From an uncultured Gammaproteobacteria bacterium (GTDB lineage: Bacteria > Patescibacteriota > Patescibacteriia > Patescibacteriales > UBA12465), in the NCBI GenBank assembly GCA_964616855.1, contig CAZTUJ010000001.1, forward strand, positions 192,301-256,300: 64,000 nt of DNA, in the 5' to 3' direction. Below, piece by piece: positions 1,566-15,834 of the stretch. Each line of letters starts with the position of its first letter. Position 1 is the stretch's first letter. The position numbers and the translations under genes are program-made. The notes under the pieces are model-generated. The model saw nothing but the letters and a program-made list of their open reading frames with translations, ran no database searches and had not been told where the DNA came from.

Positions 1566-1590
1566 AAAAGCCGTGAATAACGGCTTTTTT
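1566..1590 (+). terminator. Rho-independent terminator after typA
   Basis: Stem gccgt (1570-1574) pairs with acggc (1580-1584) around a 5-nt loop. It is flanked by an A-run and followed by a T6 tract (1585-1590). Confidence 0.75.
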
Positions 1591-1681
1591 GTATCATGTC
1601 AACATATTGCCCGACCGCCTGATAACGACTATAATATTATTAGAAACACCTATTAATTTTTATTTAAGATTATTGTTTTTT

Positions 1682-2545
1682 ATGTCTAATTTACCTTTAA
1701 TTGGTTTTATCGGTCAGGGCTTTATTGGCAAGAATTACGCTGATGATTTTGAGGCGCGTGGTTTTACAGTTATACGTTATTCCCAGGAAGAGCCTTATCT
1801 CGCTAACCGCGAACGGATTGCCATCTGCGATTTTGTCTTTATTGCCGTGCCCACCCCCACCACTCCCCAAGGTTTTAGTTCCGCTATTTTAGAAGAAGTC
1901 TTAGCTTTAGTTGGTCCCGGGAAGGTTGCTGTCATTAAATCCACTATTCTCCCCGGCACCTGTGCGTCTTTGCAAGAAAAATATCCTGATCGTTTTATTT
2001 TTCATAGTCCGGAATTTTTAACCGAAAAAACTGCTGCTTGGGACGCCGCGCACCCTAGTCGTAATATTGTCGGCTATCCCGTTGATGATGCTATCTATCG
2101 GGCTAAGGCCGAAGAAATTTTAGATCTCTTGCCGCCGGCACCACTGCGTCTGGCTTGCCGGGCCAAAGAAGCGGAGTTGGTTAAATATGCGGCCAATTGC
2201 TTTTTATTTTTGAAAGTTATTTATGCTAACATCCTTTATGATTTAGCCGCTAAGGAGGGTAGTGATTGGGAAAATATTAAAGCGGGAATGGCGGCTGATC
2301 CTCGGATTGGTGCCAGTCATCTTGATCCGGTGCATGCTTCCGGCACTAATATTCAGAGCGGCCGAGGCGCCGGTGGTCATTGCTTTGTTAAAGATTTTGC
2401 CGCTTTTTTAAACTATGCCCGTGACTGCGAATTAGATTTAGCCAGTATTGATTTCTTGGCAGCGGCGGAAGCAAAAAATCTTAGCCTTTTAAATACTAGC
2501 GGCAAAGACGCAGAAATTATTGCTAGCGTCTATGGTCAAAGTTAA
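1682..2545 (+). CDS. UDP-glucose/GDP-mannose dehydrogenase family protein, short form lacking the usual C-terminal domain
   Basis: ATG at 1682 (MSNLPLIGFIGQGFIG Rossmann start); the track ORF start at 1589 is an upstream extension. Family blocks are HSPEFLTEKTAAWD, AKEAELVKYAANCFL and the catalytic-Cys block GRGAGGHCFVKD. The protein ends about 45 aa after the Cys. Confidence 0.6.
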   Translation: MSNLPLIGFIGQGFIGKNYADDFEARGFTVIRYSQEEPYLANRERIAICDFVFIAVPTPTTPQGFSSAILEEVLALVGPGKVAVIKSTILPGTCASLQEKYPDRFIFHSPEFLTEKTAAWDAAHPSRNIVGYPVDDAIYRAKAEEILDLLPPAPLRLACRAKEAELVKYAANCFLFLKVIYANILYDLAAKEGSDWENIKAGMAADPRIGASHLDPVHASGTNIQSGRGAGGHCFVKDFAAFLNYARDCELDLASIDFLAAAEAKNLSLLNTSGKDAEIIASVYGQS

Positions 2546-2547
2546 TT

Positions 2548-3867
2548 TTGTTTTCTTTCATGTTGAATAAATTGTTAAAATTGATGACCAAAATTACTCC
2601 CGCCTCTTATCGTTGGCTGTGGGAGCATGATGGCTTTAAGCGTTATTTTTTTAATACCGGCTGGATGTTTGCGGGCCAAATTTTTGCTTTAATTTTGTCT
2701 TTTTTTATTGGCGCTTGGATGGCCCGCTATCTCGGTCCAGAAGATTACGGCACTATTAATTATGCCTTAGCTTTTGCCGGACTTTTTGGTTTTATTGCCA
2801 GCTTTGGTGTGGATAGTATTTTAGTGCGGGAATTAGTGAAGAGTCCGGAGAAAAAGGAAGAGTTACTGGGTACTAGTTTCGTTCTTAAGTTGTTAGGAGC
2901 CCTGATGGCCATTATTTTTACGGTTATTGCCACTTTCATGGTTGAACAAAGCTCCTTTAACCGGATTTTAATTATTATTTTCACGACTAGTTTTATTTTT
3001 CAGTCTTTGAACGTAGTTAGTGCTTTTTTTCAATCTCGAGTAGAAGCAAAAAATAATGTCTGGTCTCAAGTTGGCGCTGGTTTGCTTAGCAGCCTCCTTA
3101 AAATTGTCTTTATTCTTTCGGGGGCGGGCTTAGGGTGGTTGATGCTGATTTTTACCCTGGATGCCGCTTGGCAGTCTTTACTATTGGTCTTGATTTATCG
3201 CCGCCGCGGTTACCGCTTAGGTGCTTGGCGTCTTCGTTGGTCTTTGGCTAGGCAAATTGTCTCGACCTCTTGGCTCCTGATGTTGTCAGCGGCTGTTTCT
3301 TTTATTTTGTTAAGAATTGACCAGGTGATGATCGGCCAAATGTTGGGCACGGTTGAAGTCGGTCTGTATGCGGTGGCCGTTAAATTTGTTGAGGTCTGGT
3401 ATTTTTTACCAGGAATCATTTCCGCCTCTCTTTTTCCGGCAATTTTGAATGCAAAAAAAACTGATATTAATATTTATCGCCGGCGCTTATTTCATTTTTT
3501 TGTGTTTATGTTGGTCTTTTCTTTGGTGGTCGCTCTCGGGACCGTGGCTTTGTCTTATTACTTAGTGGTGGGTTTATTTGGAGTCGAGTATCTCCCGGCG
3601 GTGGCAGTGTTGAGAGTTTATGCTTGGTCAAGCGTGGGTTTATTTTTAAATTGGGCTTTTTATCAGCAATTAATTGCTGAAGACCGCTTATACCTTATCT
3701 TTTTTAGTAATTTTGCGGGCATGGCCCTGAATGTTTGTTTAAATTTTTTATTTATTGCCCGTTTCGGGATCATCGGGGCCGCTTGGGCGACGCTTATTTC
3801 TTATTTATTAGTGCCAGCGATTATTTTTTGGCATTTTCAGCGCGGCAATAAGTCGATTTCGTCTTAG
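2548..3867 (+). CDS. Wzx-like polysaccharide/oligosaccharide flippase (MOP/PST family)
   Basis: 439-aa polytopic membrane protein. The N-terminal FFNTGWMFAGQIFALILSFFIGAWMARYLGPEDYG and the repeated hydrophobic helices are typical of polysaccharide biosynthesis (Wzx) proteins. TTG at 2548 or ATG at 2560. Confidence 0.7.
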   Translation: MFSFMLNKLLKLMTKITPASYRWLWEHDGFKRYFFNTGWMFAGQIFALILSFFIGAWMARYLGPEDYGTINYALAFAGLFGFIASFGVDSILVRELVKSPEKKEELLGTSFVLKLLGALMAIIFTVIATFMVEQSSFNRILIIIFTTSFIFQSLNVVSAFFQSRVEAKNNVWSQVGAGLLSSLLKIVFILSGAGLGWLMLIFTLDAAWQSLLLVLIYRRRGYRLGAWRLRWSLARQIVSTSWLLMLSAAVSFILLRIDQVMIGQMLGTVEVGLYAVAVKFVEVWYFLPGIISASLFPAILNAKKTDINIYRRRLFHFFVFMLVFSLVVALGTVALSYYLVVGLFGVEYLPAVAVLRVYAWSSVGLFLNWAFYQQLIAEDRLYLIFFSNFAGMALNVCLNFLFIARFGIIGAAWATLISYLLVPAIIFWHFQRGNKSISS

Positions 3868-3891
3868 TCTAATTATTTTACTTTTATTTTT

Positions 3892-3922
3892 AAAAAGACC
3901 GACACTGATAGTCGGTCTTTTG
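3892..3922. terminator. Bidirectional hairpin terminator between convergent flippase and GT4 genes
   Basis: Stem agaccgac (3896-3903) pairs with gtcggtct (3911-3918) around a 7-nt loop, with an A5 run upstream and a T-run downstream. Confidence 0.75.
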
Positions 3923-3938
3923 GTACTTATCTAAAGAT

Positions 3939-5039
3939 TTAGCTGATATTTAAAATCTCTTGCAGGCGTCGACGGAAATGGGCGAGGGTATAGTATTGCT
4001 GATAGCGAGCTTGGCCGCGAGCACCCATGATATTCCGTAGTTCGGGGTCAGCAATGAGAGTGTTGAGAGCGCCCGCCAGCGCCTGGCTGTCGGCTGGTTG
4101 GACAGAGAGACCATTAATTCCATCTTGGCCAACTTCTTCAACGCTGGTTTGGAGATAGGTGTTAACTATGGCTTTGCCGGCGGCCATGGCTTCCAGTTGG
4201 ACTAAGCCGAAGGCTTCACTTTTCGCGGTGGAGGGAAAGAGAAAAATGTCAGCTGCTAAGAAGAAGGGGTGAAGGTGGGCCTGGGGTTTAATGATGGTGA
4301 TTTTATCTTCTAAATTATTATCTTTAATTAATTGACGTAAGTTTTTTTCTTCCGGACCAGTGCCGATAATTAATAATTTAGCCTTAACTTCCGTCATCGC
4401 TTTGATCGCGTAGCTGAGACCTTTATAATACACTAGGCGGCCAACGGCGAGGATGAGGCTCTCCCGCTGACTATATTTTTCTCTGATTAATTGGGCTTCA
4501 GCCTGATCGCCTTGGCTGTAGTCAATATCAACACCATAGGGTACGGCACGGCATTTATCGGCAAATTGGGAGAGCAGGGGGGAGTGTTTAATAAGATTAT
4601 TGCCGCTAGTAAGGATTAGTCCCGCTCTTTTCAAGCTGGCTTTTATTAAGGGCATGACCAAAATTTTGCTAATTTTTTGGCGGACGATATCGGCGTGGTA
4701 ATAGATAACTAATTTATGTTTGGGAATGAAGGGGCAGATTAGAGCGGCCAAGGGGAAGGGGTAGTGGATGATGATACGGTCATATTGTAAACAGAGACGG
4801 CAACTGAGCCGGAAAAAATCTAAAGACAAGGGCATGCCTAAGGCCTTTCCTAAAGAGGCCGCGCGATAGACTTTAACGCCGTTGATTATTTCTTCGCTTC
4901 GCCTTCCTTTTTCTTGGCAAGCTAAGACCGCTGTTTCATCACCAGCTTGGTCGCTAAATCCTTCGGCGATGTTTTGGACCACCGTTTCAATGCCGCCGAT
5001 TACCGGATAGTATAATTTATTTATCTGTAGAATTTTCAT
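3939..5039 (-). CDS. Glycosyltransferase family 4 (GT-B)
   Basis: N-terminal MKILQINKLYYPVIGGIE and the C-terminal GT4 signature FLFPSTAKSEAFGLVQLEAMAAGKAIVNT. Confidence 0.8.
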   Translation of the reverse strand: MKILQINKLYYPVIGGIETVVQNIAEGFSDQAGDETAVLACQEKGRRSEEIINGVKVYRAASLGKALGMPLSLDFFRLSCRLCLQYDRIIIHYPFPLAALICPFIPKHKLVIYYHADIVRQKISKILVMPLIKASLKRAGLILTSGNNLIKHSPLLSQFADKCRAVPYGVDIDYSQGDQAEAQLIREKYSQRESLILAVGRLVYYKGLSYAIKAMTEVKAKLLIIGTGPEEKNLRQLIKDNNLEDKITIIKPQAHLHPFFLAADIFLFPSTAKSEAFGLVQLEAMAAGKAIVNTYLQTSVEEVGQDGINGLSVQPADSQALAGALNTLIADPELRNIMGARGQARYQQYYTLAHFRRRLQEILNIS

Positions 5040-6111
5040 GGTGGTGAATGAGGTCTATTAATTGCTTGCTAGATTTTTCCCAGCTGAAACGACGAGCATT
5101 TATCTCCCCCTGGGCGACTAAACGAGCCGCCAGTTTCGGCTGATTAAGGAGTTGATTGATTTTATCATTTATATCACTGGGATTTCTGCCATCGAAGAAG
5201 AGAACGGAATCAGCCGCTACTTCTCTAAAGGCCGGAATATCGGAACAGAGTACTGGTATTTTAGAAATTTGGGCTTCTAAAATGGGAATACCGAAGCCTT
5301 CATACAGGGAGGGGAAAATTAAGGCCTGGGCGCCGGCTAAAAGGCGATATTTTTCCTGTTCGTCCACAAAGCCGGTGAATCTAATCCCGGGGCCGGCCAT
5401 GGCTACTAACTTTTCCATCTTCTTATCCATTTTGCCAATAATCAGTAATTCACAATCTTGGAATTTACCGTTAGCCTGGAGGCGGGCCTTAATTAGGCTG
5501 CTAAGATTTTTGCGGGCTCGGGCGTTACCAATGGCAACAAAATATGGCATATTAATCGGCTCTGAAGCTTCAGTGGGCTCCTGAGAGGCGGTGGGTAGGG
5601 TGGGCAAACCTCCGTAGATGACTTTGATTTTTTCCGCCTTGATGTGTAAATGTTGACTGAGCTCGCGGCGGGAGAATTCGGAAATGGTAACAATTTCTTG
5701 GGAAAAGTTTTTAGCAAAAAATAAACAGGCGCGCCAGTACATCTTTCCTGTCAGCGAGCTTTCATTTTTAAAGATAAACGGAGCGGCATCATAGAGGGCG
5801 ACAATTTTTTTAGAAAATAGCCAGGGTGAATCCAGCGACGGACAGAAGAGGAAATCAAATTTTTCTTTTTTCAATATTTGCGGGAGACGTAATTGTTGAT
5901 AACCAAAAAGGCGTAGGCGACTAGGCTTGGAGAAGTGCTTTACTTCAAGCTTAATATGACTAGGGAGAGACTGGAGAAAGGCGGCTGATTTTTCGTTAGC
6001 AAAAACCGTGATCTCGTCTTTGGTCTCTGGCCAAGCATGCAATAAGCCGGCAAGAAAACTCTCGATGCCTTGATAGCTGGTGTAGGGCAGGGCGTTGATG
6101 GCAATTTTCAT
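5017..6111 (-). CDS. Glycosyltransferase family 4 (GT-B)
   Basis: IFPSLYEGFGIPILEAQISKIPVLCSDIPAFREVA signature. The stop overlaps the downstream GT4 start by 23 nt. Confidence 0.8.
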   Translation of the reverse strand: MKIAINALPYTSYQGIESFLAGLLHAWPETKDEITVFANEKSAAFLQSLPSHIKLEVKHFSKPSRLRLFGYQQLRLPQILKKEKFDFLFCPSLDSPWLFSKKIVALYDAAPFIFKNESSLTGKMYWRACLFFAKNFSQEIVTISEFSRRELSQHLHIKAEKIKVIYGGLPTLPTASQEPTEASEPINMPYFVAIGNARARKNLSSLIKARLQANGKFQDCELLIIGKMDKKMEKLVAMAGPGIRFTGFVDEQEKYRLLAGAQALIFPSLYEGFGIPILEAQISKIPVLCSDIPAFREVAADSVLFFDGRNPSDINDKINQLLNQPKLAARLVAQGEINARRFSWEKSSKQLIDLIHHHENSTDK

Positions 6112-6941
6112 AAAGAAAAGTTTCTTATTTTCTCTTGGCAGAAGAGAAAAATAATATAAGGAAGGCGTAATATTTTAAGAAGAGCGGCTTGAGGGCGGCC
6201 ATGATGCTTGCGGAAATAATAATCTTGGGAACGATAATAGACTCGGCGTTTAGCTAGGCTCGGGGCTAAACTTTGTCCGCCGAGATGCACTAAGCTAGTA
6301 GAGAGACAGACGGCGACGCGATATTGCTGTTGCCAGGCGCGGCGGCAGAGATCAACATCTTCAAAGTAAAGGAAAAATTGTTCATCCCAGCCCTTTAAAT
6401 CCTTAAAGGTTTCTCGTTTAATCATTAAAGCACAGCCACTTACCCAATCAACCGCTAGATAGCTTGAATCAGGTTTTGGTTCTAGATTTTTTTGCTGTCG
6501 TTTAAAGATTAATTTTTTTAATTTCGGAAAATTACCAAAAGCGGCTTTTTGATAACTGCCATCAGGCAGAGCGAGTCTCGGGGAAATAATACCCAAAGTC
6601 TCGTCTTGGCGAAAAAGATGAAGACAGTCGCTCAGAATGTCGGCGCTAATGATGGTGTCGCTATTAAGAAAGAAAAGAAAATCACCTTGAGCAATAGCCG
6701 CCCCCTGATTGTTGGCACCGGCAAAGCCCAAGTTTTTCTGATTGGCAATTAATTTTATTTTTTCACCATATTTAGCCTGGATACCTTCGGTGCTACCGTC
6801 GGCGGAGGCGTTATCAATTATGATTACTTCTAAATCATTTGGCCAGAAGCCATTTTTTTCTCCTAAAGCAAAAAGACCGTCGAGACAATTTTCGGTCAGT
6901 TTCAGAGTCTTATAGTTAATTATAATTACGGAAAAGAGCAT
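6108..6941 (-). CDS. Glycosyltransferase family 2
   Basis: MLFSVIIINYKT..., IIIDNASADGS and FLNSDT (DxD-type) motifs. There is a 4-nt overlap with the downstream gene. Confidence 0.8.
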   Translation of the reverse strand: MLFSVIIINYKTLKLTENCLDGLFALGEKNGFWPNDLEVIIIDNASADGSTEGIQAKYGEKIKLIANQKNLGFAGANNQGAAIAQGDFLFFLNSDTIISADILSDCLHLFRQDETLGIISPRLALPDGSYQKAAFGNFPKLKKLIFKRQQKNLEPKPDSSYLAVDWVSGCALMIKRETFKDLKGWDEQFFLYFEDVDLCRRAWQQQYRVAVCLSTSLVHLGGQSLAPSLAKRRVYYRSQDYYFRKHHGRPQAALLKILRLPYIIFLFCQEKIRNFSL

Positions 6942-6946
6942 AGAGG

Positions 6947-7867
6947 CTAGAGACGTAGCATTCTTTTTACTAGGTTATAAAGATGTAATTTTCTTAAGGA
7001 TAAGGATAAAATAAGTTTGCTCAAGTCTTTAATCCTCAGTATTTTTCTAATTCTCACTTGACGCTCGAAGTCAGGCGGTAAAAATTCTTTGTTAGCAATA
7101 ATAATCTTACGATAGTAGTCTTTCCAGATTTGGTCATAGTAGAGAAAATGTTTAATCTTATTTTTTTTGCCCCAGGATTCATTATCGCCGCGGTTACGGA
7201 CAATTTGAGTAGCGATAATACCAGCACTGTATTCATGGTCAGCATAAAGTAAGAGGGAGGGCAGGGGAAATAAGTCTAAGGGCTTATTAAATTTTTCGAA
7301 GATGTAATAATTTTTTTGGAATAGGCTTCTTTTAATTAGCCAATTAGAGCAGAGAGTAAGATAATAATCGATGCTTGTATAAAATTTTGTGCTCAATAAA
7401 GAAAACAATTCTCGTCGATTTGTCGCTATAAAATCCTGGTCTAGCTGTAATAAATTTTTATATTCACGCGGACTTTCTCCTCTAAAACCCAGTAAGTTGC
7501 AGATAATTAAGTCGGTATTTTTATTTTTAATAAAATTTAGAATGGTTTGCAGAGCATTTTCTGATTGTAAGTCATCATCGGAAAATACCCAGATGTAGTC
7601 ACCATCAGCCAAAGAAGCAACTTTAATAATGCCGGGTACTAATTTTCGGGGTTGATCGTCTCGGATATATTGAATATTGCAAAAATTGTTTGTAAATTTT
7701 TCTGCCACCTCCGCGGTGTTGTCACTGCTTTGGTTGTCTAGAATAAAAATATTAACCGCGGCCATCACTTCTGGGTTTTGAAATTGACGGACAATACTCT
7801 CGAGACATTCATCCAAGAATCTGGCACGATTATAGGTGGGAATGCAGATGCTAATGACTGGTTTCAT
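6947..7867 (-). CDS. Glycosyltransferase family 2
   Basis: ISICIPTYNRARFLDECLESI, ILDNQSSDNT and VFSDDD motifs. Confidence 0.75.
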   Translation of the reverse strand: MKPVISICIPTYNRARFLDECLESIVRQFQNPEVMAAVNIFILDNQSSDNTAEVAEKFTNNFCNIQYIRDDQPRKLVPGIIKVASLADGDYIWVFSDDDLQSENALQTILNFIKNKNTDLIICNLLGFRGESPREYKNLLQLDQDFIATNRRELFSLLSTKFYTSIDYYLTLCSNWLIKRSLFQKNYYIFEKFNKPLDLFPLPSLLLYADHEYSAGIIATQIVRNRGDNESWGKKNKIKHFLYYDQIWKDYYRKIIIANKEFLPPDFERQVRIRKILRIKDLSKLILSLSLRKLHLYNLVKRMLRL

Positions 7868-7868
7868 A

Positions 7869-10070
7869 TTATTTTAAATCATCAATTATCTTCTCAATCA
7901 TTTGCTGGAAGCTGAGACTGGGCTTCCAGTTGGTAATAGTTTTTAATTTACCGGCATCACCGACTAAGAAAGTTTTTTGAGGACTGAGCATGCCTTTCTT
8001 CTCTTGGACAAATTTACGCCAGTCCAAATCTAGATAATTAAAAGTAATATTGACAAAATCTTGAACGGAATGGGCTTGACCTGTAGCAATAATGAAATCA
8101 TCAGCTTTTTCTGTTCGTAAAATTAGCTGCATGGCACGAATGTAGTCATAGGCATAACCCCAGTCGACTTTGGCATTTAAGTCGCCTAAAATAAGTTGGT
8201 CGCTTTTACCATTTTTAATATCAAGGGCGCCTTTAATTATTTTCATGGAAACAAAGCTTTCGGAGCGATATTTGGACTCGTGGTTATAGAAAATGCCGGC
8301 GGTGGCGAAGAGACCATATTTTTCTCGATAGAATTTACTTAGCCAGAAGCCGTTCATTTTAGTGAGGCCATAGACAGTATTGGGGTTGCAAGGAGTTGTT
8401 TCAGTTTGAAAATTTTCAGAGTTATCTCCAAAAATCAGGGAAGAGCTGGCGTAGAAGATATGGCTAGCAGAAGAAAAAAGACGGACGCCTTCAAGAAAAT
8501 TGAGAAAAGACAAAACGTTGGTTTGGTAGCTTTGAGCGACTCTGCCATCTTCTTTTTTGTCTCTGTCTTGAGAAGAATGATGGAAGGCGGCTAAGTAATA
8601 AATTTCATCCGGTTGCCATTCCTTTAGGAAGGCGGCCACTGCTTGCTCATTATTAATATCAATTTTTTGCTGCCAGTTAGTCTCTCGGGTGCAGAGAGAG
8701 TCTTTGCCAATGCCGACTATTTTATAATCCTGCGTAGATAAATCATCAAATAAAATTTTTCCGTCTTGGCCGCCCACGCCGATAATAACCGCCTTTTTTT
8801 TATTGGATAAATCTTCTTGACTAATAATCTTAATGGTCGGCAAGGGGAAAATTAATTTACCGCCATTTTTTAGAAATTCTTGTTCCCGATTGACGATATT
8901 ATCTTGGAAGTGCCAGGGTAATACTAAGAAGTAGTCAGGCTTGGTCGCCTTTGCTTCTTTTTCGGAGACAATGGGAATAAGGGTGCCGGGAGTGCGGCGC
9001 TGAAATTTATATTCATTAACATCGGCAATACAGGTTAAATCCGCTGCCGACAGTTGGCAGTATTGTAAGATAACGTTGCCTTTAGTGGAAGCACCGTAGC
9101 CATAAACTTTATGGCCTTCTTTTTTAAGATCGGTTAGAAGTTTTTTAAGTTCTTGCCGGTGTTTTTCTGTCTGTAGGCGGAAATTTTCATAGATCGCCAT
9201 TTGGTTAAAGCCTCTTTTTTCTTCATCATCAAGAGCGTCTTTAATTAAAGATTCGGCTTCTTGGTGTTTAGAGTCACGATGAGCCAAAGTTAAGCAGAAA
9301 CTGGCACCGTTAATCTTATTAAATTCTAGATTGATTATTTTTAGTCCCGCCCGCTCCGCCATCCATTGGAATTGTTTGAGAGCATAAAATTCTAAGTGTT
9401 CATGGCAGATAGTGTCGTAGGAAACATTATCGATCATCGCTGGCAGGTAGCTTTGTTCAACCACCCAGATTCCTTTTTCGTCTAGCACCGCGGCAATATC
9501 TTTCATGATGGCTAAGGGGTCGGGTAGGTCATAGAACATGGCAATTGAGCTGATGACCTTGGCTTTTTTATCTCCCTTTAGTTTCTTTACCACCGCGGCT
9601 GAGAAAAAAGAAGCTTCTTTAACAACATCGGCCGGATAGTATTCTTGGAATTTTTCCGCAGTCGGATCAATGCCCAGTAAGTCTAATTTCCGATTACGAT
9701 ATTGAGAAAGCAGTGTGCCGTCATTACTGGCAATGTCTATAATTAAATCATCGTCAGCTAGCTCCATCCTTGCTTCTATCTTGGCCACTATTTCCCCTAA
9801 ATGTGTCACCATGGAGGAGTTCAGTCCGGAGCGATAGCCATAGTTATCACCATAAAGCTTCTCCATGCTGTAGTCGTGCTGAAGCTGGACTAAGCCGCAA
9901 TGCTGACTGGTATCTTCATGGAAACATTTAACAATAGCCAGGGGTCCGCTCTCGACCACTTCATCAACTTGGGGAAAGACGCCGGTTAAGGCCTGTTCGC
10001 CTAAGTCAAGAATAGGGACTAAATTTTCATTACCGCAGATGCGGCAACGGTTAATTTTTTGGTAGAGCAT
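7869..10070 (-). CDS. Fusion protein: NDP-hexose C-methyltransferase-like module (zinc ribbon + SAM MTase + C-terminal domain) joined to a Gmd/Rmd-like short-chain dehydrogenase/reductase
   Basis: The methyltransferase module spans aa 1-~420 (nt ~8811-10070). It has a Cys4 cluster (C9, C12, C49, C58), the SAM-fold block LIIDIASNDGTL and the TylC3-type C-terminal region YGYGASTKGNVILQY...FLVLPW. The SDR module spans aa ~425-733 (nt 7872-8798). It has GVGGQDG, YGLTK (YxxxK), FYNHES and VDWGYAYDY, collinear with the neighbouring Gmd, but SSSL replaces the Gmd STSE. Confidence 0.75.
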   Translation of the reverse strand: MLYQKINRCRICGNENLVPILDLGEQALTGVFPQVDEVVESGPLAIVKCFHEDTSQHCGLVQLQHDYSMEKLYGDNYGYRSGLNSSMVTHLGEIVAKIEARMELADDDLIIDIASNDGTLLSQYRNRKLDLLGIDPTAEKFQEYYPADVVKEASFFSAAVVKKLKGDKKAKVISSIAMFYDLPDPLAIMKDIAAVLDEKGIWVVEQSYLPAMIDNVSYDTICHEHLEFYALKQFQWMAERAGLKIINLEFNKINGASFCLTLAHRDSKHQEAESLIKDALDDEEKRGFNQMAIYENFRLQTEKHRQELKKLLTDLKKEGHKVYGYGASTKGNVILQYCQLSAADLTCIADVNEYKFQRRTPGTLIPIVSEKEAKATKPDYFLVLPWHFQDNIVNREQEFLKNGGKLIFPLPTIKIISQEDLSNKKKAVIIGVGGQDGKILFDDLSTQDYKIVGIGKDSLCTRETNWQQKIDINNEQAVAAFLKEWQPDEIYYLAAFHHSSQDRDKKEDGRVAQSYQTNVLSFLNFLEGVRLFSSASHIFYASSSLIFGDNSENFQTETTPCNPNTVYGLTKMNGFWLSKFYREKYGLFATAGIFYNHESKYRSESFVSMKIIKGALDIKNGKSDQLILGDLNAKVDWGYAYDYIRAMQLILRTEKADDFIIATGQAHSVQDFVNITFNYLDLDWRKFVQEKKGMLSPQKTFLVGDAGKLKTITNWKPSLSFQQMIEKIIDDLK

Positions 10071-10080
10071 AGATAGGCGG

Positions 10081-11103
10081 CTATTGATTATTATTTTGAA
10101 GATCGTGTTCCATCATAATTTTTACCAATTCTTTAAAACCTACTCGCGGTTGCCAATTTAATTGTTTCCTAGCTTTACTGCTGTCACCGATGAGTAGTTC
10201 TACTTCGGTGGGGCGGAAATATTTAGGGTCAATATCAATTAAAACTTTTCCGGAAAGGCGGTCCACTCCTTTTTCTTCTAAACCAGAGCCCTGCCATTCA
10301 ATTTGATAGCCGGCCAAAGCAAAGGCTTCCTCGCAAAATTCGCGGATACTGTGCGTTTCACCGGTGGCGATGACGTAGTCATCGGCTTTTTCTTGTTGAA
10401 GCATCAGCCACATGGCTTCGACGTAGTCCGGAGCATAGCCCCAGTCTCTTTTGGCGTCTAAATTACCTAAACTGATTTTTTCTTTTTTGCCTTGTTTAAT
10501 TTCCGTAATGCCAGTGGTGATTTTCCGGGTTACAAAAATCTTTCCCCGACGAGGCGATTCGTGGTTGAAGAGGATGCCGTTGCAAGCAAAGATATTATAG
10601 GCTTCACGGTGGTTGACCACGGTCCAGAAGGAGAAGAGCTTAGCCACTCCATAAGGTGAGCGCGGATAGAAAGGAGTTTTTTCAGTCTGAGGGGTTTCTT
10701 GAACCTTGCCAAAAAGTTCGGAAGTAGAAGCTTGATAGAATTTGGGTTTGATGCCGGCGTTTTTAATAGCATCTAATAGACGCAGGGTGCCGAGGCCATC
10801 AATCTCCGCTGTATATTCTGGAATCTGGAAAGAGATATGAACATGTGATTGGGCGCCGAGGTTATAGATTTCATCCGGCTGTATTTGTTCTAACAAACGG
10901 CTAAGATTGCTGGAGTCAATTAAATCACCGTAGTGAAGGTGAAAGCGGTCACCCCCAGTTTGTAAAATGTGATCAATCCTTTCAGTGTTAAAAACCGAAG
11001 AAGCGCGGCGAATACCGTGGACTTCATAGCCTTTTTCTAAGAGCAGTTCGGCCAGATAGGAACCATCTTGGCCGGTGATGCCGGTAATGAGAGCTTTTTT
11101 CAT
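10081..11103 (-). CDS. gmd: GDP-mannose 4,6-dehydratase
   Basis: [56 protein letters not shown] and [17 protein letters not shown] at 11103 is preferred over the GTG at 11121, which would overlap the upstream stop at 11114-11116. Confidence 0.9.
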
Positions 11104-11113
11104 ATTTTTTAAA

Positions 11114-12988
11114 TTAGGCACTTTTATCTTTCTTTTTAAATACTAAAGTGGCAAAGGCATAGCGGTGAGGTCCATATTGAAAATCTGGTTCAGGACAAGA
11201 CCAGTGCGGAGTATCAATGAGCTCGCAATCAGGGATGAGCTCCAGTAGCCTTATTTGTAAATCATTTTTTGTGTATAGCCTTTCATCCTCCATCGGTTTA
11301 TCCTGTCCTGCTTGCCAGTTTTCTAAATAATCACAGGTGATAATAGCTGTGCCGCCGGGTGCCAGGAGCGCGGCTATATCTTTGATAAAAGTTTCGTCAT
11401 CACCAACGTGTTCGATTACGGAAGTGGAAAAAATTAATTGGTAGGAATTGAGGATGGTTGTCGGTTTACTCATATATTCTCGTAAGGAATAATTGCTAAC
11501 CGGATCAATTTCTTCAATTTTAAGTCCCATTTTTTTCAAGCTCAAAGCGGCTGTGTCTTCGTAGCTGCCGACGCATAATATTTTTGAGGTAGTGTTTTCT
11601 GGGAGAAGGCGCCAGACAGTATCAAAAACAAAGGCTTGCTGTATATTGGCGGCGACAATTTTTTGGGCATAAATTTTTGGCGCCAAGAGAGATAACATTT
11701 TTTCCGCCGGAGCGTAGAGTTGCCTAGCCTTTTCATCAAGGATACGATTAAAGGAGTTATCGTTACCCAAGCTAATCGCTTGATATTTTATAGGAGCTAT
11801 TTCTATTTCAGTATTTTCTTCAGTCGCAGATGAGTCTCGTAGCCAAGAAAAATTTTCTTGAGGTTTTTGGAGTAAGCGGTAAACTTTGTTTTTAATTTTT
11901 CCGCGGATACTGATATTTTTTTCTGGGCGTTGATTAAAAATATTATTTAGAATGCGTTCATAGTCCCAGCATAAATTTTCTGGACTCCAATCTTGATATT
12001 TTTCCCAAAGAGGAGCGAAGCCGTTATTGGCAATTGTTAGTAAATCATTTTTTTCTACACAGATGGAGGGTTTAAGGTCGCGGATATGGCGGAACATGGA
12101 GCTGCTAGAAATGGCAATTGGTTTTTTTACCGACATTGCGACATCAACTGCACTAGATAGACCGCGGTCACCATTATCACCGTAGAGAAAGATATTAATA
12201 GTGTTGCCCGCTAGGAAGTTGCGCAATTGTTCGTCGTTTAAGAAATCGTGGGTAACGGTAAGTTTAATTTTTGGATTTTTAATTAAGGCTTGGCAATCTC
12301 TGGCAATTTTTCTAGCATTATCACCATTTTTATCAACAAAGTCGGCGCTAGGAATGTTGAATCTAATTAAAGCTTCGGGTAGGGTTTTTTCAGCGAGAGC
12401 GACAATCTTTCCAAAACCTTTATTGCTTGTACCGAAGCCAAAACTACCGATGGTGAAAATAGCGGGTGAGCCGCCGCCCTCATAGCGTTTAATCAATCTT
12501 CCTGTTTTGTAGACTAGAGGATTAAATAGTCGCAAAGATGGGTCGGGGGTGATGTAAAAATCAAATAGAGAGTTATTGAGCCGACGGTTGATTAAAAATT
12601 GATTGCGATAAGCGATGGCGTTATCAGCAACCGCTTGGGTCACTTCGTGAATAATACCAATCTGGGGAATTTTTATTTTACTAATTCTATTCCAGAATAA
12701 TCTTGGCAGTATTTTTTGGCTCAGCCAAGGCATTGTAATAGGATGGTAGTTATAGATGATACCGTCAGGCTGATGTTGTGCTATTAGTGCCTTTAACTCG
12801 TTGAGACTGGAGCATTCGGTGGGGATAAAATTATATTTTTGAGAAGATTGCAAAATATCAATAATATCTTTACCAAATTCATAAACCCCGCAATGGGTGC
12901 GGCGGTGAGAAACAAATAGTATTTTTTTATTATGGTTTAAAGGCTGTTCAAGATTATTCATAATCAAAAATTTATTGAGTTGCCCCAA
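11114..12988 (-). CDS. Two-domain protein: GT-B-like glycosyltransferase-like N-terminal region plus C-terminal class I SAM-dependent methyltransferase
   Basis: C-terminal aa ~465-560 carry [15 protein letters not shown] (a motif I-like block), [16 protein letters not shown] and [14 protein letters not shown]. The N-terminal ~350 aa have a Rossmann-like GT-B C-half pattern ([18 protein letters not shown]...[11 protein letters not shown]). Start is TTG at 12988 or ATG at 12961. Confidence 0.6.
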
Positions 12989-12989
12989 T

Positions 12990-14327
12990 TTATCTCCCCT
13001 CCCGCCCTAAGACGGTGGCAATCGTTTTTAGGGCGATGGTGGCGTCGAGATAGGGGGAGCGATGCTTAATATAATATAAGTCGTGCTGCAACTTTTTTAA
13101 AGTATCAACCGGGGAGGAGGAATGATATTCACCCGAAACTTGATCCCAGCCACTTAAGCCTGGTTTTACTAAGAGGCGGGTATTATAGAAAGGTAATTGT
13201 TTCTCCAACTCAGCCGAAAATTCTGGTCTTTCCGGACGCGGGCCGATAAAACTCATTTCACCTTTGATCACATTGATTAACTGGGGAATTTCGTCTAAGC
13301 GCGTGGAGCGCAGAAAAGAACCAATTGCGGTAATGCGGTTGTCGTTGATTGTCGTCATCGCGCCATCATTATTTTTTACCCGCATGGTCCGGAATTTATA
13401 TAATTTAAAAGCGCGGCCATTTTTACCAAGGCGCTCTTGAGTGAAGATGGCTGGTCCGGAGCTGCTTAGTTTTACCATTAAGGCAATTAGTGGCCAGAAA
13501 GGTAGGGAGAGCAAGAAGATAATAGCGGCCAGGATGAAGTCCAGGCTTTGTTTAAGAAAATCAAAATAATTTTTTTCACCTTCTTGCAGATTTTCTAGGA
13601 ACCAATCTTGATTAATACTTTCTACCGGCACCTCTTCATTGATTTGTTCATAAAAATTGGTGTAAGAAATGAAGCTAACGCGGTAGCGGAGCAGGGCAAA
13701 TAAACTACTACTAATCATTTCGTTTGCCCCTAAGTCGTCAGCCAGGACAACAATGCGGATATTTTTGGTGCGGATATTTTTTTCTAAATCGGCCAATTCT
13801 GCGGCGTGGCTGATTATTTGGACAATTTGATAACCTAAACCCGGTTTTTTAGCCAGGCTGGCCACTAGGGCAGCGGTTTTTTCATTGTTGCCGATAATGG
13901 CTAAGTTGTTTTGCCAGGCATTAGCACTAGCCAGCCAATAGGCCAGACGTCGCCATAACAAAAAAGCAGCCAAGGCGATGGCGGTAAAAATGGCTAGATT
14001 GGTTTTAGGGGCGATGTCCGCCCGGGGAAAGATATAGAAATAAAGGGCGGCCAGCAGGGAAGCAGCGATGACGCTATTGAAGGTGCGGCGGGTAAAGTTT
14101 TTAATCGCCGCCATTTGGCGGAGACTATAGAGACTATTGATATAAAAAACTAAAATAAAAATTACGAAGACACCAAAAAAATAGCGCCAATGTCCCTGCC
14201 AGTAGGGTGTTAAATCTTGTTGGCCATCAATTAGGCGGTAGCGCACAAACAGCGTTAAAGCTAAAGCGGCGTGGAGAATTAATAAATCTCCGGCTAAGAA
14301 GATTATTTTTTTCAGGCGATGTTTCAT
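12990..14327 (-). CDS. Polyprenyl-phosphate glycosyl-1-phosphate transferase (WbaP/bacterial sugar transferase family), initiating enzyme
   Basis: N-terminal TM helices plus a C-terminal bacterial sugar transferase domain (PAIFTQERLGKNGRAFKLYKFRTM, DEIPQLINVIKGEMSFIGPRPERPEF). ATG at 14327 (MKHRLKK) is preferred over the track start at 14372. Confidence 0.85.
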   Translation of the reverse strand: MKHRLKKIIFLAGDLLILHAALALTLFVRYRLIDGQQDLTPYWQGHWRYFFGVFVIFILVFYINSLYSLRQMAAIKNFTRRTFNSVIAASLLAALYFYIFPRADIAPKTNLAIFTAIALAAFLLWRRLAYWLASANAWQNNLAIIGNNEKTAALVASLAKKPGLGYQIVQIISHAAELADLEKNIRTKNIRIVVLADDLGANEMISSSLFALLRYRVSFISYTNFYEQINEEVPVESINQDWFLENLQEGEKNYFDFLKQSLDFILAAIIFLLSLPFWPLIALMVKLSSSGPAIFTQERLGKNGRAFKLYKFRTMRVKNNDGAMTTINDNRITAIGSFLRSTRLDEIPQLINVIKGEMSFIGPRPERPEFSAELEKQLPFYNTRLLVKPGLSGWDQVSGEYHSSSPVDTLKKLQHDLYYIKHRSPYLDATIALKTIATVLGREGR

Positions 14328-14412
14328 ATTTATGCCTAAATCATAGCAATAAAAATATGGAAAAGCAACCAAAAAAGAGCTCCTCGGTTTAGTGTTTTAA
14401 TTAGGGTTACTA

Positions 14413-14478: not shown

Positions 14479-15834
14479 ATGCTTAAATTCAATAAAAAAA
14501 CTTATATTTCTGCCTTTTTTGCCCTTTCCTTTTCCTTTTCCTTTTTAGGAATGTTTTTAATTAATATTAGCCAAGTAAAGGCTTTAAGCCCAGAAATTAA
14601 TCAAGTTAAAGTTCCTGGAGAAGCAACTGTTTATTATCTCAACCATGCTACCCATCAGCGCAAGGCTTATATTAATGAGGCCGTTTTTATCGATTACGGT
14701 AATACTTGGGAGGCAGTGCGAACTATTAGTCCGGAAGAATTAGCCAATTGGCCGGAAGCACAGTTAATTAAGACTGCTGATAGTGAAGATTTATATTATA
14801 TTCAAGAAGGCAAGAAGGTGAAAATTAAGAGTTATCAGGATATTATTGACTATAAATTAAGTTCAGTTCTACCTTTAACTGTGAGTGCTTTTGAATTATC
14901 TCAATACGAAGAGCAAGGCTCTTATCAAGAAACCGGATTGCTAAAAGCGCTAGGTTTAGAAATTTCTCAATCTTTAATTAATAATCAGCAATCGGGTAAT
15001 GTCTTAGTGCCGGGCACCCTGGATAACCAAGTGATGTTGCTTCACTTTCAGGCGCGTAACGAAGCCGTATCGGTGCAAAGTCTTCGTTTCAACTCCGGCG
15101 GCCTCTATGACTCTAAGCTAGTTGATGATATTTATTTAGTTAACGCTGCTACCGGGGAACGGTTAAAGGGTCATAGCACGGTACATGATCGTGAAGTGTC
15201 GCTTTATTTGAATCAAGGCGTTTTATTAATTCCAGCCGGTGCCACCGTTGATTTACGCGTTATGCTCGATCTTAAGAGTATTAGCAGCGTCGGCGGTCAA
15301 GATTTACGCTTGCAATTGCTTAGTGCCGATTCTATTGGTGCTTCCGCCGCCGCTACAGGCAATTTCCCTTTAGTTTCCTCTACCTTTTATATGGTGGAAG
15401 CTAATTCCATTCTTGGTCGGGTAGAAGCAACAGAGAATAGTTTGAATGGTAATGGTAGTGCCCGCAATCTCGGTGTTTTTACGCTTGCCGAAACTAGCGG
15501 CCAAGAAGATGTTTATATCAAAGAGATGGTCTTTAGTAACGAAGGTACGGCGGGACGTAATGATTTAGATACTTTTAAGCTGAAAAAAGATGGTAAAATA
15601 ATTGCTTCGGCTAAGACCATGGATCGTAATCGTCTTGTTTTTGATATCTCCTATCTCCGTATACCTGCCAACACCAGAGTCCAGTTGACGCTTAGCGCTA
15701 ATCTAACTAATGATTACCAGAGCCAGAGTGCGGTTGATTTAAGTCTAGAAAGACTAACGGCCGTGGGGCGGACTTATGAGTTTTCGCTCAGCCCCTTAAT
15801 TACCAATCTTCAAGAAAGCTTCCTCTTGCCATAA
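14479..15834 (+). CDS. Secreted/anchored hypothetical protein with N-terminal YYL-KR modules and repeated beta-rich domains
   Basis: N-terminal hydrophobic signal/anchor (ISAFFALSFSFSFLGMFLINISQVKA). Two short modules follow (TVYYLNHATHQRKAYI and DLYYIQEGKKVKI), then two similar beta-rich halves. No family was recognised. Confidence 0.6.
   Translation: MLKFNKKTYISAFFALSFSFSFLGMFLINISQVKALSPEINQVKVPGEATVYYLNHATHQRKAYINEAVFIDYGNTWEAVRTISPEELANWPEAQLIKTADSEDLYYIQEGKKVKIKSYQDIIDYKLSSVLPLTVSAFELSQYEEQGSYQETGLLKALGLEISQSLINNQQSGNVLVPGTLDNQVMLLHFQARNEAVSVQSLRFNSGGLYDSKLVDDIYLVNAATGERLKGHSTVHDREVSLYLNQGVLLIPAGATVDLRVMLDLKSISSVGGQDLRLQLLSADSIGASAAATGNFPLVSSTFYMVEANSILGRVEATENSLNGNGSARNLGVFTLAETSGQEDVYIKEMVFSNEGTAGRNDLDTFKLKKDGKIIASAKTMDRNRLVFDISYLRIPANTRVQLTLSANLTNDYQSQSAVDLSLERLTAVGRTYEFSLSPLITNLQESFLLP

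Follow-up and report, generated by a model that had tools for sequence, protein, structure and literature searches.

The window analysed here is the whole 64,000-nucleotide stretch of contig CAZTUJ010000001.1 (GenBank assembly GCA_964616855.1, positions 192,301 to 256,300), from an uncultured bacterium placed by GTDB in the Patescibacteriota. On its minus strand, at 7869–10070, lies a single open reading frame (ORF) of 733 codons that begins with ATG and encodes a sugar C-methyltransferase (the N-half) fused to a Gmd-like short-chain dehydrogenase/reductase (SDR) lacking the dehydratase glutamate (the C-half; 'Glu-less' in the following). This assignment draws on the ORF list, the translation, Pfam matches, an AlphaFold2 (AF2) model and fused orthologues. 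A first-pass annotation made from the sequence alone had described one uninterrupted ORF of 733 aa with two modules, and the ORF list and translation bear this out. Pfam returned Methyltransf_13/14 together with GDP_Man_Dehyd, as had been expected, with E-values of 1e-50 or better for both halves. On the same strand, gmd (10081–11121) encodes a genuine GDP-mannose 4,6-dehydratase of 346 aa with its STSE motif intact, which scored 555.7 bits against TIGR01472 (cutoff 415) and 497.6 bits against PF16363. The spacer between its stop and the ATG of the fusion (10071–10080, minus strand) is exactly 10 nt, the distance given in the first-pass annotation.

The N-half comprises three domains, all on the minus strand: a Cys4 zinc ribbon (Methyltransf_13; residues 9–73, Cys 9, 12, 49 and 58; 9852–10046; PF08421, 50.5 bits against a cutoff of 31.3), a class I S-adenosylmethionine (SAM) methyltransferase core (Methyltransf_23; residues 104–246, with IDIASNDG at 111–118 and ICHEHL at 221–226; 9333–9761; PF13489, 53.5 bits) and a TylC3-type C-terminal domain (Methyltransf_14; residues 253–411; 8838–9314; PF08484, 170.8 bits). 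This three-part architecture, proposed earlier and now supported by Pfam and by the cysteine positions, is common to TylC3, TcaB9, KijD1 and MtmC. Among solved structures it is closest to the dTDP-sugar 3-C-methyltransferases MtmC (185 bits), KijD1 (164 bits) and TcaB9 (151 bits), at 27–29% identity, and the predicted structure of the N-half has their fold, with Foldseek TM-scores (normalised to the target, as are all TM-scores given here) of 0.88–0.92 to MtmC, KijD1 and TcaB9 (4RVD, 5T64, 3NDI). The N-half was thus matched to sugar methyltransferases by both sequence and fold when that assignment was tested. According to PDB titles, five residues have been mutated in TcaB9 (Y76, H181, Y222, E224 and H225); in the alignment Tyr76 (Tyr77 of the window protein), Glu224 and His225 are kept, whereas His181 is replaced by Asp181 and Tyr222 by Cys222. 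The window protein further differs from these enzymes in its second zinc knuckle, which is CX8C and not CX2C, and in its setting: every characterised member belongs to an actinomycete antibiotic pathway and has a dTDP-2,6-dideoxy or 3-amino sugar as its substrate, whereas the genes of the window's methyltransferase clade neighbour gmd in polysaccharide clusters and are fused to regions encoding Gmd or domains derived from it. Judged by its sequence, the N-half is a TylC3/TcaB9-type sugar C-methyltransferase with predicted activity. A viral fold search also returned a multidomain methyltransferase of Klosneuvirus KNV1 (A0A1V0SJ68, 743 aa) as a structural match to the methyltransferase half.

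The C-half (residues 427–733; 7872–8792, minus strand) is a Gmd-like extended SDR domain, matched by PF16363 (GDP_Man_Dehyd) over residues 429–727 with 227.9 bits and predicted to be an NAD(P)H-dependent 4-ketoreductase. As claimed at the outset, it is collinear with the neighbouring Gmd, at 36% identity, and contains all of the motifs then quoted (GVGGQDG, YGLTK, YNHES and VDWGYA). The claim that STSE of Gmd is SSSL in the fusion, with loss of the catalytic Glu, also held: in the alignments of this segment (residues 542–545; 8436–8447, minus strand) Ser543 remains, but Leu545 occupies the place of the dehydratase Glu. The YGLTK motif (8358–8372, minus strand) retains two catalytic residues of the SDR triad, Tyr567 and Lys571, which are invariant in the family alignments (Y144 and K148). 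Glu135 of the homologous RmlB is the base that takes the proton from C5 (PMC9415975), and human GMD E157Q was crystallized with unreacted GDP-Man (PDB title). Because Leu545 stands in place of the dehydratase Glu, the C-half should be unable to dehydrate.

Gmd is the closest relative of the C-half in sequence and fold. Among PDB entries the best matches were Gmd 1N7G (183 bits) and Pseudomonas Gmd 1RPN (173 bits), compared with 71 and 40.6 bits for Rmd (2PK3 and 6X3B) and 42 bits or less for dTDP-glucose dehydratases or RmlD; in the model searches the C-half reached 200.7 bits on the Gmd equivalog TIGR01472, below its cutoff of 415, 64 bits on dTDP_gluc_dehyt and 33.5 bits on rmlD. Its predicted structure has the Gmd/Rmd fold (TM-score about 0.75–0.85 to Gmd structures and 0.85 to the reductase Rmd 2PK3). 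On these scores the 'Rmd-type' label of the first-pass annotation could not be upheld and an Rmd orthologue was rejected; only the fold is common. Like Rmd, which is a GDP-6-deoxy-D-lyxo-4-hexulose reductase, the C-half is predicted to reduce C4 of a GDP-4-keto-6-deoxyhexose on an extended-SDR fold; it differs in being sequence-distant, in its Gmd-derived lineage and in a proposed substrate with an extra C-methyl group. A GFS/Fcl-type epimerase-reductase is unlikely (NF047922, 21.8 bits), the dehydratase-Glu position being variable and often aliphatic. GxxGQDG, YxxxK, NHES and DWGYA are common to Gmd and the C-half; the C-half retains Tyr and Lys but not the catalytic Glu, and the Glu-less family as a whole is without a segment of ~11 residues after β2 and a 16-residue FRPxEV segment. 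In Gmd the loop after β2 helps to hold NADP. Many members of the Glu-less family have Asp after β2, where the window protein has Gly-Lys-Asp. By sequence comparison, the C-half falls into a distinct Glu-less clade that descends from Gmd.

The fusion is real. The same in-frame 733-aa architecture was found in protein P0001 of locus L001 (GCA_041742295.1) at 93% identity, and the same fused ORF in P0002 (77%) and in L005, from a Candidatus Falkowbacteria bin (about 75–80%). In the window and two fused orthologues the junction reads in one frame as PLPTIKII(S/G/D)Q(E/A)DL(S/L)(N/K)KK(K/R)AVIIGVGGQDG. In the window the linker is SQEDLSNKKK (ten residues, 417–426; 8793–8822, minus strand), encoded in part by an A8 run. 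In the nearest unfused relatives, L006 (Candidatus Falkowbacteria CP066698.1) and L007, L014 and L017 (metagenome-assembled genomes from Patescibacteria or the Parcubacteria group), the methyltransferase stop overlaps the SDR start, as ...TTATGA... in L006 and L007, so that the fusion is the scar of a small indel in such a gene pair; the comparison of these four junctions with the fused ones of L001 and L005 places that scar in the linker. It would thus have originated by in-frame joining of two adjacent stop/start-overlapping genes in a Patescibacteria lineage resembling Candidatus Falkowbacteria, where the closest loci place the organism of the window as a probable member. An artefact of sequencing or assembly, in which an indel in the A8 run merged two genes, might be suspected from the homopolymer within the linker and from the two genes with a 4-nt overlap in relatives at 56–68% identity; it is extremely improbable and was rejected. 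The ORF is in frame at 733 aa in three independent assemblies (the window, GCA_041742295.1/L001 and L005/P0002), whose junctions have diverged through both synonymous and non-synonymous substitutions as well as in A-run length and context, and near the junction neither a methyltransferase stop nor an SDR Met occurs in any frame. The only in-frame start-like codons there are TTG at L410, within the conserved FPLP motif, and GTG at V432, within GxxGxxG, so the SDR half has no obvious start of its own. A further fused lineage with a different linker (P0009 and P0018, below) also speaks against an artefact. The first-pass annotation had pointed to a split ORF in related genomes as grounds for doubt; distant relatives do have two genes, but the fusion in this lineage is not thereby refuted.

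The fusion lies in a polysaccharide operon on the minus strand that begins with a priming polyprenyl-phosphate glycosyl-phosphotransferase (Bac_transf; 12990–14372; PF02397, 201 bits; TIGR03025, 353.6 bits). The next gene (11114–12988), which overlaps the start of gmd, encodes a cluster protein of 624 aa with a weak methyltransferase-like C-terminal end (weak PF13489, Methyltransf_23, match) and gave no NCBIfam or PDB match. Downstream of the fusion are four glycosyltransferases assigned by Pfam (3939–7867): GT2 at 6947–7867, GT2 at 6108–6941, GT4 at 5017–6111 and GT4 at 3939–5039, in the same order as in L001 and L003. A Wzx-type flippase (Polysacc_synt; PF01943, PF13440) is encoded convergently on the plus strand at 2548–3867, a position also conserved in L001 and L003. 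In the Candidatus Falkowbacteria locus L003 each gene of the window cluster has a syntenic counterpart, from the priming Bac_transf through a 612-aa version (3890–5728) of the 624-aa protein, gmd, methyltransferase, SDR, two GT2 and two GT4 to the convergent Wzx, but the methyltransferase and SDR are separate there, and an extra hexapeptide-repeat gene and an extra methyltransferase gene are present. The unfused pairs of Candidatus Falkowbacteria CP066698.1 (L003/L006) thus stand in an orthologous operon with the same order from priming transferase to Wzx (68% identity for the methyltransferase, 56% for the SDR); they differ from the window in being two genes with an ATGA overlap, and none is a characterised case.

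Other fusions of the same methyltransferase clade were surveyed among the best full-protein matches and by an exhaustive search of 1.84 billion representatives, and the domain order of the window protein was found in databases. Three types were distinguished. In type A the methyltransferase precedes a Glu-less SDR; it comprises the window protein, P0001, P0002, P0009 and P0018, with P0259, P0262 and P0377 as odd Glu-less variants. P0009 and P0018 (44% identity) have a longer linker and His in place of the Glu, and represent a second fused lineage, so that the fusion of methyltransferase and Glu-less SDR arose at least twice. In type B a true Gmd precedes the methyltransferase (about 19 clusters, including P0050 from Patescibacteria), and in type C the methyltransferase precedes a Glu-retaining, GQIG-type Gmd-like domain (P0077, P0081, P0118 and about 25 representatives). 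The order methyltransferase–SDR is thus not rare, but its Glu-less version is; as an unfused pair the two genes are very common, and the window fusion is a rare variant that hard-wires their partnership. A further combination was seen in L089, where a Glu-less SDR (AASSMIFG; 48% identity to the C-half) lies directly upstream of a Gmd–methyltransferase fusion. That the three activities are joined in several combinations is a classical signature of consecutive steps in one pathway. No solved chain covering both halves of the fusion was among the Foldseek matches.

Some of the type-C representatives (P0241–P0305) exceed 1000 aa and have extra C-terminal regions (P0244 and P0249), and P0256 has a long Asn/Thr-rich insert; the type-C representatives are possibly of eukaryotic or giant-virus origin. 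Just upstream of the Gmd–methyltransferase fusion in the Patescibacteria-type loci L087 (4348–5952) and L089 (3369–4946) lies a gene for a B12-binding radical SAM protein, a hint that the same sugar, or the glycan, also undergoes another C- or O-modification.

A search with the C-half only returned 599 proteins at an E-value of 1e-20 or better, and the 120 best of these were analysed. They are free-standing proteins of about 314 aa with 47–59% identity to the C-half and, where named, are mostly labelled 'GDP-mannose 4,6-dehydratase'. Five fell outside the motif search pattern; none of the 115 readable sequences has Glu at the dehydratase position, which is occupied by Leu in 77, His in 30, Met in three, Arg in two and Ser, Phe and Ile in one each. 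The C-half itself shows the family features, namely GxxGQDG, (S/A)S(S/A)x with a non-Glu residue, YGxxK, YNHES and (V/I)DWGYA, with neither the β2 insertion nor FRPxEV. No curated model for the Glu-less family was among the NCBIfam matches. In the family alignments GxxGxxG, Ser, Tyr144, Lys148, NHES and Arg179 do not vary between phyla, although overall identity is about 45–60%. An invariant cofactor motif and triad beside a freely varying Glu position point to an active NAD(P) oxidoreductase in which only the dehydratase chemistry has been lost; the pattern fits a working NAD(P) enzyme, with reductase activity as the predicted function.

The family alignment was then run against one genome per species, giving 80 loci, of which 72 were Glu-less (L, H, R, M, K, V or Q at the Glu position, never E) and eight carried Glu-containing Gmd-like paralogues. 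Carriers include Patescibacteria, Omnitrophota, Verrucomicrobia, Planctomycetes, Bacteroidota, Proteobacteria, Cyanobacteria, Acidobacteria, Chloroflexi, Actinomycetes and the archaeon Methanoregula. In 60 of the 72 Glu-less loci the gene next upstream, in the same orientation, is that of a TylC3-type methyltransferase; this gene is fused in one (L005), elsewhere within 8 kb in three and not seen in eight, one of which is on a truncated contig. Genes of the GDP pathway (gmd or manC) were found within 8 kb in 29 of 71 loci and rmlA or rmlB in eight; 24 loci had GDP-pathway genes only, three dTDP-pathway genes only, five both and 39 neither. A methyltransferase with 48% identity was also found in a plasmid cluster of Phyllobacterium zundukense with gmd, manC, manB, rhamnan-synthesis-F and ABC-transporter genes; that 19 kb contains no Glu-less SDR, and the occurrence of the methyltransferase in a GDP-rhamnan-type cluster is suggestive only as a link to the module.

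The eight Glu-containing paralogues (L055, L058, L070, L072, L075, L076, L081 and L082; e.g. FHASSSEIFG) score between true Gmd and the Glu-less family. In L075 and L082 the paralogue comes right after true gmd, and in L070, L072 and L076 it forms the end of ORFs of 429–800 aa.

Taken together, the window protein is probably a genuine bifunctional enzyme of a Wzx-dependent surface-polysaccharide operon, in which the N-half methylates the product of Gmd and the C-half reduces C4. Gmd, identified by its hidden Markov model score, would convert GDP-D-mannose to GDP-4-keto-6-deoxy-D-mannose. The N-half would then transfer a methyl group from SAM to a carbon adjacent to the 4-keto group, most likely C3, as suggested by its family, its fold and the conserved Glu224, His225 and Tyr77. 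The C-half, with its Ser/Tyr/Lys triad and GxxGxxG motif, would reduce the 4-keto group with NAD(P)H, and the resulting GDP-6-deoxy-C-methylhexose would be used by the four downstream GT2/GT4 enzymes in the Wzx-dependent pathway. Methylation is placed before reduction because TylC3-type chemistry requires the 4-keto group. The data establish the domain identities, the missing Glu, the fusion itself and the coupling of the genes; we infer the substrate nucleotide, the position of methylation, the reductase activity, the cofactor and the stereochemistry of the product. The GDP linkage is strengthened by the independent fusion of the methyltransferase clade to true Gmd and by the conserved gmd–methyltransferase–SDR operons; gmd 10 nt upstream, the larger number of loci with gmd or manC (29 of 71) than with rmlA or rmlB (eight), the arrangement in L089 and the retained GDP-contact residues N179, V190 and K193 also speak for it. 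C3 is the likelier site since all solved relatives are C3 enzymes and 3-C-methyl-D-rhamnose is a known O-antigen sugar, cited as such for Azorhizobium, Phyllobacterium and Burkholderia andropogonis in references given in PMC7203242 and PMC5644692. Named producers of this sugar are Azorhizobium caulinodans HAMBI 216/ORS 571, Phyllobacterium trifolii PETP02 and Robbsia andropogonis. The product would be a GDP-6-deoxy-3-C-methylhexose, with GDP-3-C-methyl-D-rhamnose (D-evalose) as the simplest candidate. Of the 'single-polypeptide route' initially proposed, the part that stands is the union of the methylation and reduction modules in one chain; these are only two of the three steps, Gmd being separate.

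Several observations weigh against this pathway. With regard to regiochemistry, some TylC3-family enzymes, NovU among them, methylate C5. The literature yielded no member of the methyltransferase clade or of the Glu-less SDR family that had been assayed. Neither gmd nor manC lies within 8 kb in 42 of the 71 Glu-less SDR loci, many of which are on short contigs, and a few family members (e.g. L032 and L050) lack any methyltransferase, so the Glu-less SDR is not strictly tied to methylated substrates. The AF2 model, built from a 120-sequence alignment, is confident, with a mean pLDDT of 91.4, but its pTM of 0.67 does not give a confident inter-domain geometry. MtmC-type enzymes have been reported with a ketoreductase activity of their own (PMC3539893), so that a separate reductase is not a logical necessity. 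Finally, of six GDP-contact residues listed for GMD (PMC9415975), the C-half keeps N179, V190 and K193 but not the other three (Val stands in place of R218, and a different loop in place of that with R279 and E282). Such partial conservation would suit a pair that acts on a dTDP-linked (or other NDP-linked) 4-keto-6-deoxyhexose while the adjacent gmd serves another sugar of the same polysaccharide, as would the use of dTDP sugars by every solved homologue of the N-half, the eight loci of 71 with rmlA or rmlB near the pair, and a remote methyltransferase and Glu-less SDR pair of Azospirillum thermophilum that adjoins rfbCBDA. This is nevertheless unlikely, as neither rmlA nor rmlB was called among the annotated ORFs in the first 22.6 kb of the window or in the syntenic L001 and L003, exclusive association favours the GDP over the dTDP pathway by 24 loci to three, Gmd–methyltransferase and methyltransferase–Gmd fusions tie the clade to the Gmd product, and in both the PDB and the model scores given above the C-half resembles Gmd much more than dTDP-sugar enzymes.

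The loci without gmd or manC would also agree with a redox-neutral scheme, in which the Glu-less SDR with tightly held NAD+ oxidizes C4 of GDP-mannose or GDP-D-rhamnose, the fused methyltransferase acts at C3 and the SDR re-reduces C4. No external NAD(P)H would be consumed, Gmd would not be strictly required and GDP-3-C-methyl-mannose or GDP-3-C-methyl-rhamnose could result; 3-C-methyl-D-mannose, which is not 6-deoxy, is found in the Helicobacter pylori O-antigen (PMC12961483). Fusion would aid the handing of the intermediate between the two sites. The SDR is, moreover, derived from Gmd, an enzyme that holds its nicotinamide cofactor tightly; the loss from the family of the ~11-residue segment after β2, with its NADP-holding role, however fits an exchangeable, reductase-like cofactor. 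Nothing directly supports the mechanism, a true gmd lies in the same locus in the window (10 nt away) and in 27 others, the methyltransferase clade has been fused repeatedly to true Gmd, and the scheme is accordingly rated improbable. The loss of a catalytic residue is typical of pseudoenzymes, and the C-half could be a dead Gmd-derived scaffold for oligomerisation or Gmd docking, with reduction carried out by the methyltransferase domain, in line with the 4-ketoreductase activity reported for an MtmC-type protein (PMC3539893), or by another enzyme; some Gmd–methyltransferase fusion loci, e.g. L087, have no SDR within 6 kb. An inactive scaffold is hard to reconcile with GxxGxxG, the Ser/Tyr/Lys triad, NHES and Arg being invariant across phyla while only the dehydratase-specific Glu varies, and does so freely (L, H, M, R, K, V, Q), or with a confident Rossmann fold of TM-score 0.85 to Rmd 2PK3, and appears quite improbable.

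The nearest precedent for methylation of the Gmd product followed by 4-reduction is the GDP-virenose pathway proposed for Coxiella burnetii, with CBU_0689 as gmd, CBU_0691 as a TylCIII-like and CBU_0688 as an fcl-like gene (PMC3539893). The two schemes are alike in the Gmd product, the TylC3-type C-methylation and the subsequent 4-reduction on a GDP sugar. The Coxiella scheme differs in being in silico only, in its separate genes and in its last enzyme, which is an epimerase-reductase of the GFS/Fcl type where the window has a Glu-less paralogue of Gmd. The pathway was still described as uncharacterised in a 2026 preprint (PMC13252051), and a literature search for a characterised GDP-sugar C-methyltransferase gave only the in silico Coxiella paper. 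The module of the window is an uncharacterised GDP-linked combination of known enzyme families and not a new principle; the fusion is a minor lineage-specific elaboration.

C-Methyl-branched 6-deoxyhexoses such as evalose (3-C-methyl-rhamnose) and virenose occur in virulence- or symbiosis-linked O-antigens and in antibiotics, and no biochemically defined GDP-linked route to them was found in the literature. The three-activity module of Gmd, TylC3-type methyltransferase and Glu-less Gmd paralogue is found in numerous bacterial phyla and, among archaea, at least in Methanoregula, with a pathway order that the recurrent gene fusions support unusually well. As the Glu-less paralogue is routinely misnamed 'GDP-mannose 4,6-dehydratase', its recognition corrects a widespread mis-annotation. 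The fused protein would be a convenient single construct for tests of the chemistry and for enzymatic synthesis of GDP-C-methyl sugars, and its presence shows that Patescibacteria of this lineage, despite a small genome, devote resources to an elaborate and modified glycan at the cell surface.

Two further Glu-less SDRs stand in other surroundings. In Micromonospora carbonacea DSM 43168 (L050, 7761–8921, plus strand) a Glu-less member with FYAASSHVFG and 39% identity to the C-half lies in an orthosomycin-type cluster, among genes for an EryCIII-like glycosyltransferase, a GT2, a nucleotidyltransferase, a 4,6-dehydratase-like SDR and a methyltransferase–PhyH fusion, and may be a misnamed GDP-sugar 4-ketoreductase of an orthosomycin-type pathway. 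A connection with evalose was considered and set aside: as there is no TylC3-type methyltransferase within 8 kb and the literature gives a dTDP route to 2-deoxy-evalose, the locus lends no support to C-methyl specificity. The Azospirillum thermophilum pair (L092, 6977–9249, plasmid NZ_CP029359.1) has adjoining stop and start codons beside rfbC, rfbB, rfbD and rfbA; its SDR, named 'GDP-mannose 4,6-dehydratase' in RefSeq, has Lys at the Glu position (ANSAKIF) and 24–28% identity to the window SDR and Gmd, and the pair is possibly a dTDP-linked analogue of the module.

Further ORFs flank the operon in the window. At 1589–2545 (plus strand) a UDP-glucose/GDP-mannose dehydrogenase-like protein of 318 aa matches the N-terminal and central domains of that family but not the C-terminal domain; a 322-aa version is present in L001, so the short form appears to be conserved. 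Beside the polysaccharide cluster, at 15946–18747 (plus strand), a 933-aa protein gave only a sub-threshold match to the bacterial TSP3 repeat, and it is preceded by a 451-aa ORF (14479–15834) without a family match that might be the missing polymerase or ligase. An Rfam scan of the whole window at gathering thresholds returned no RNA family, not even a tRNA. Between about 14.5 and 52.7 kb, ORFs of at least 150 aa are mostly on the plus strand.

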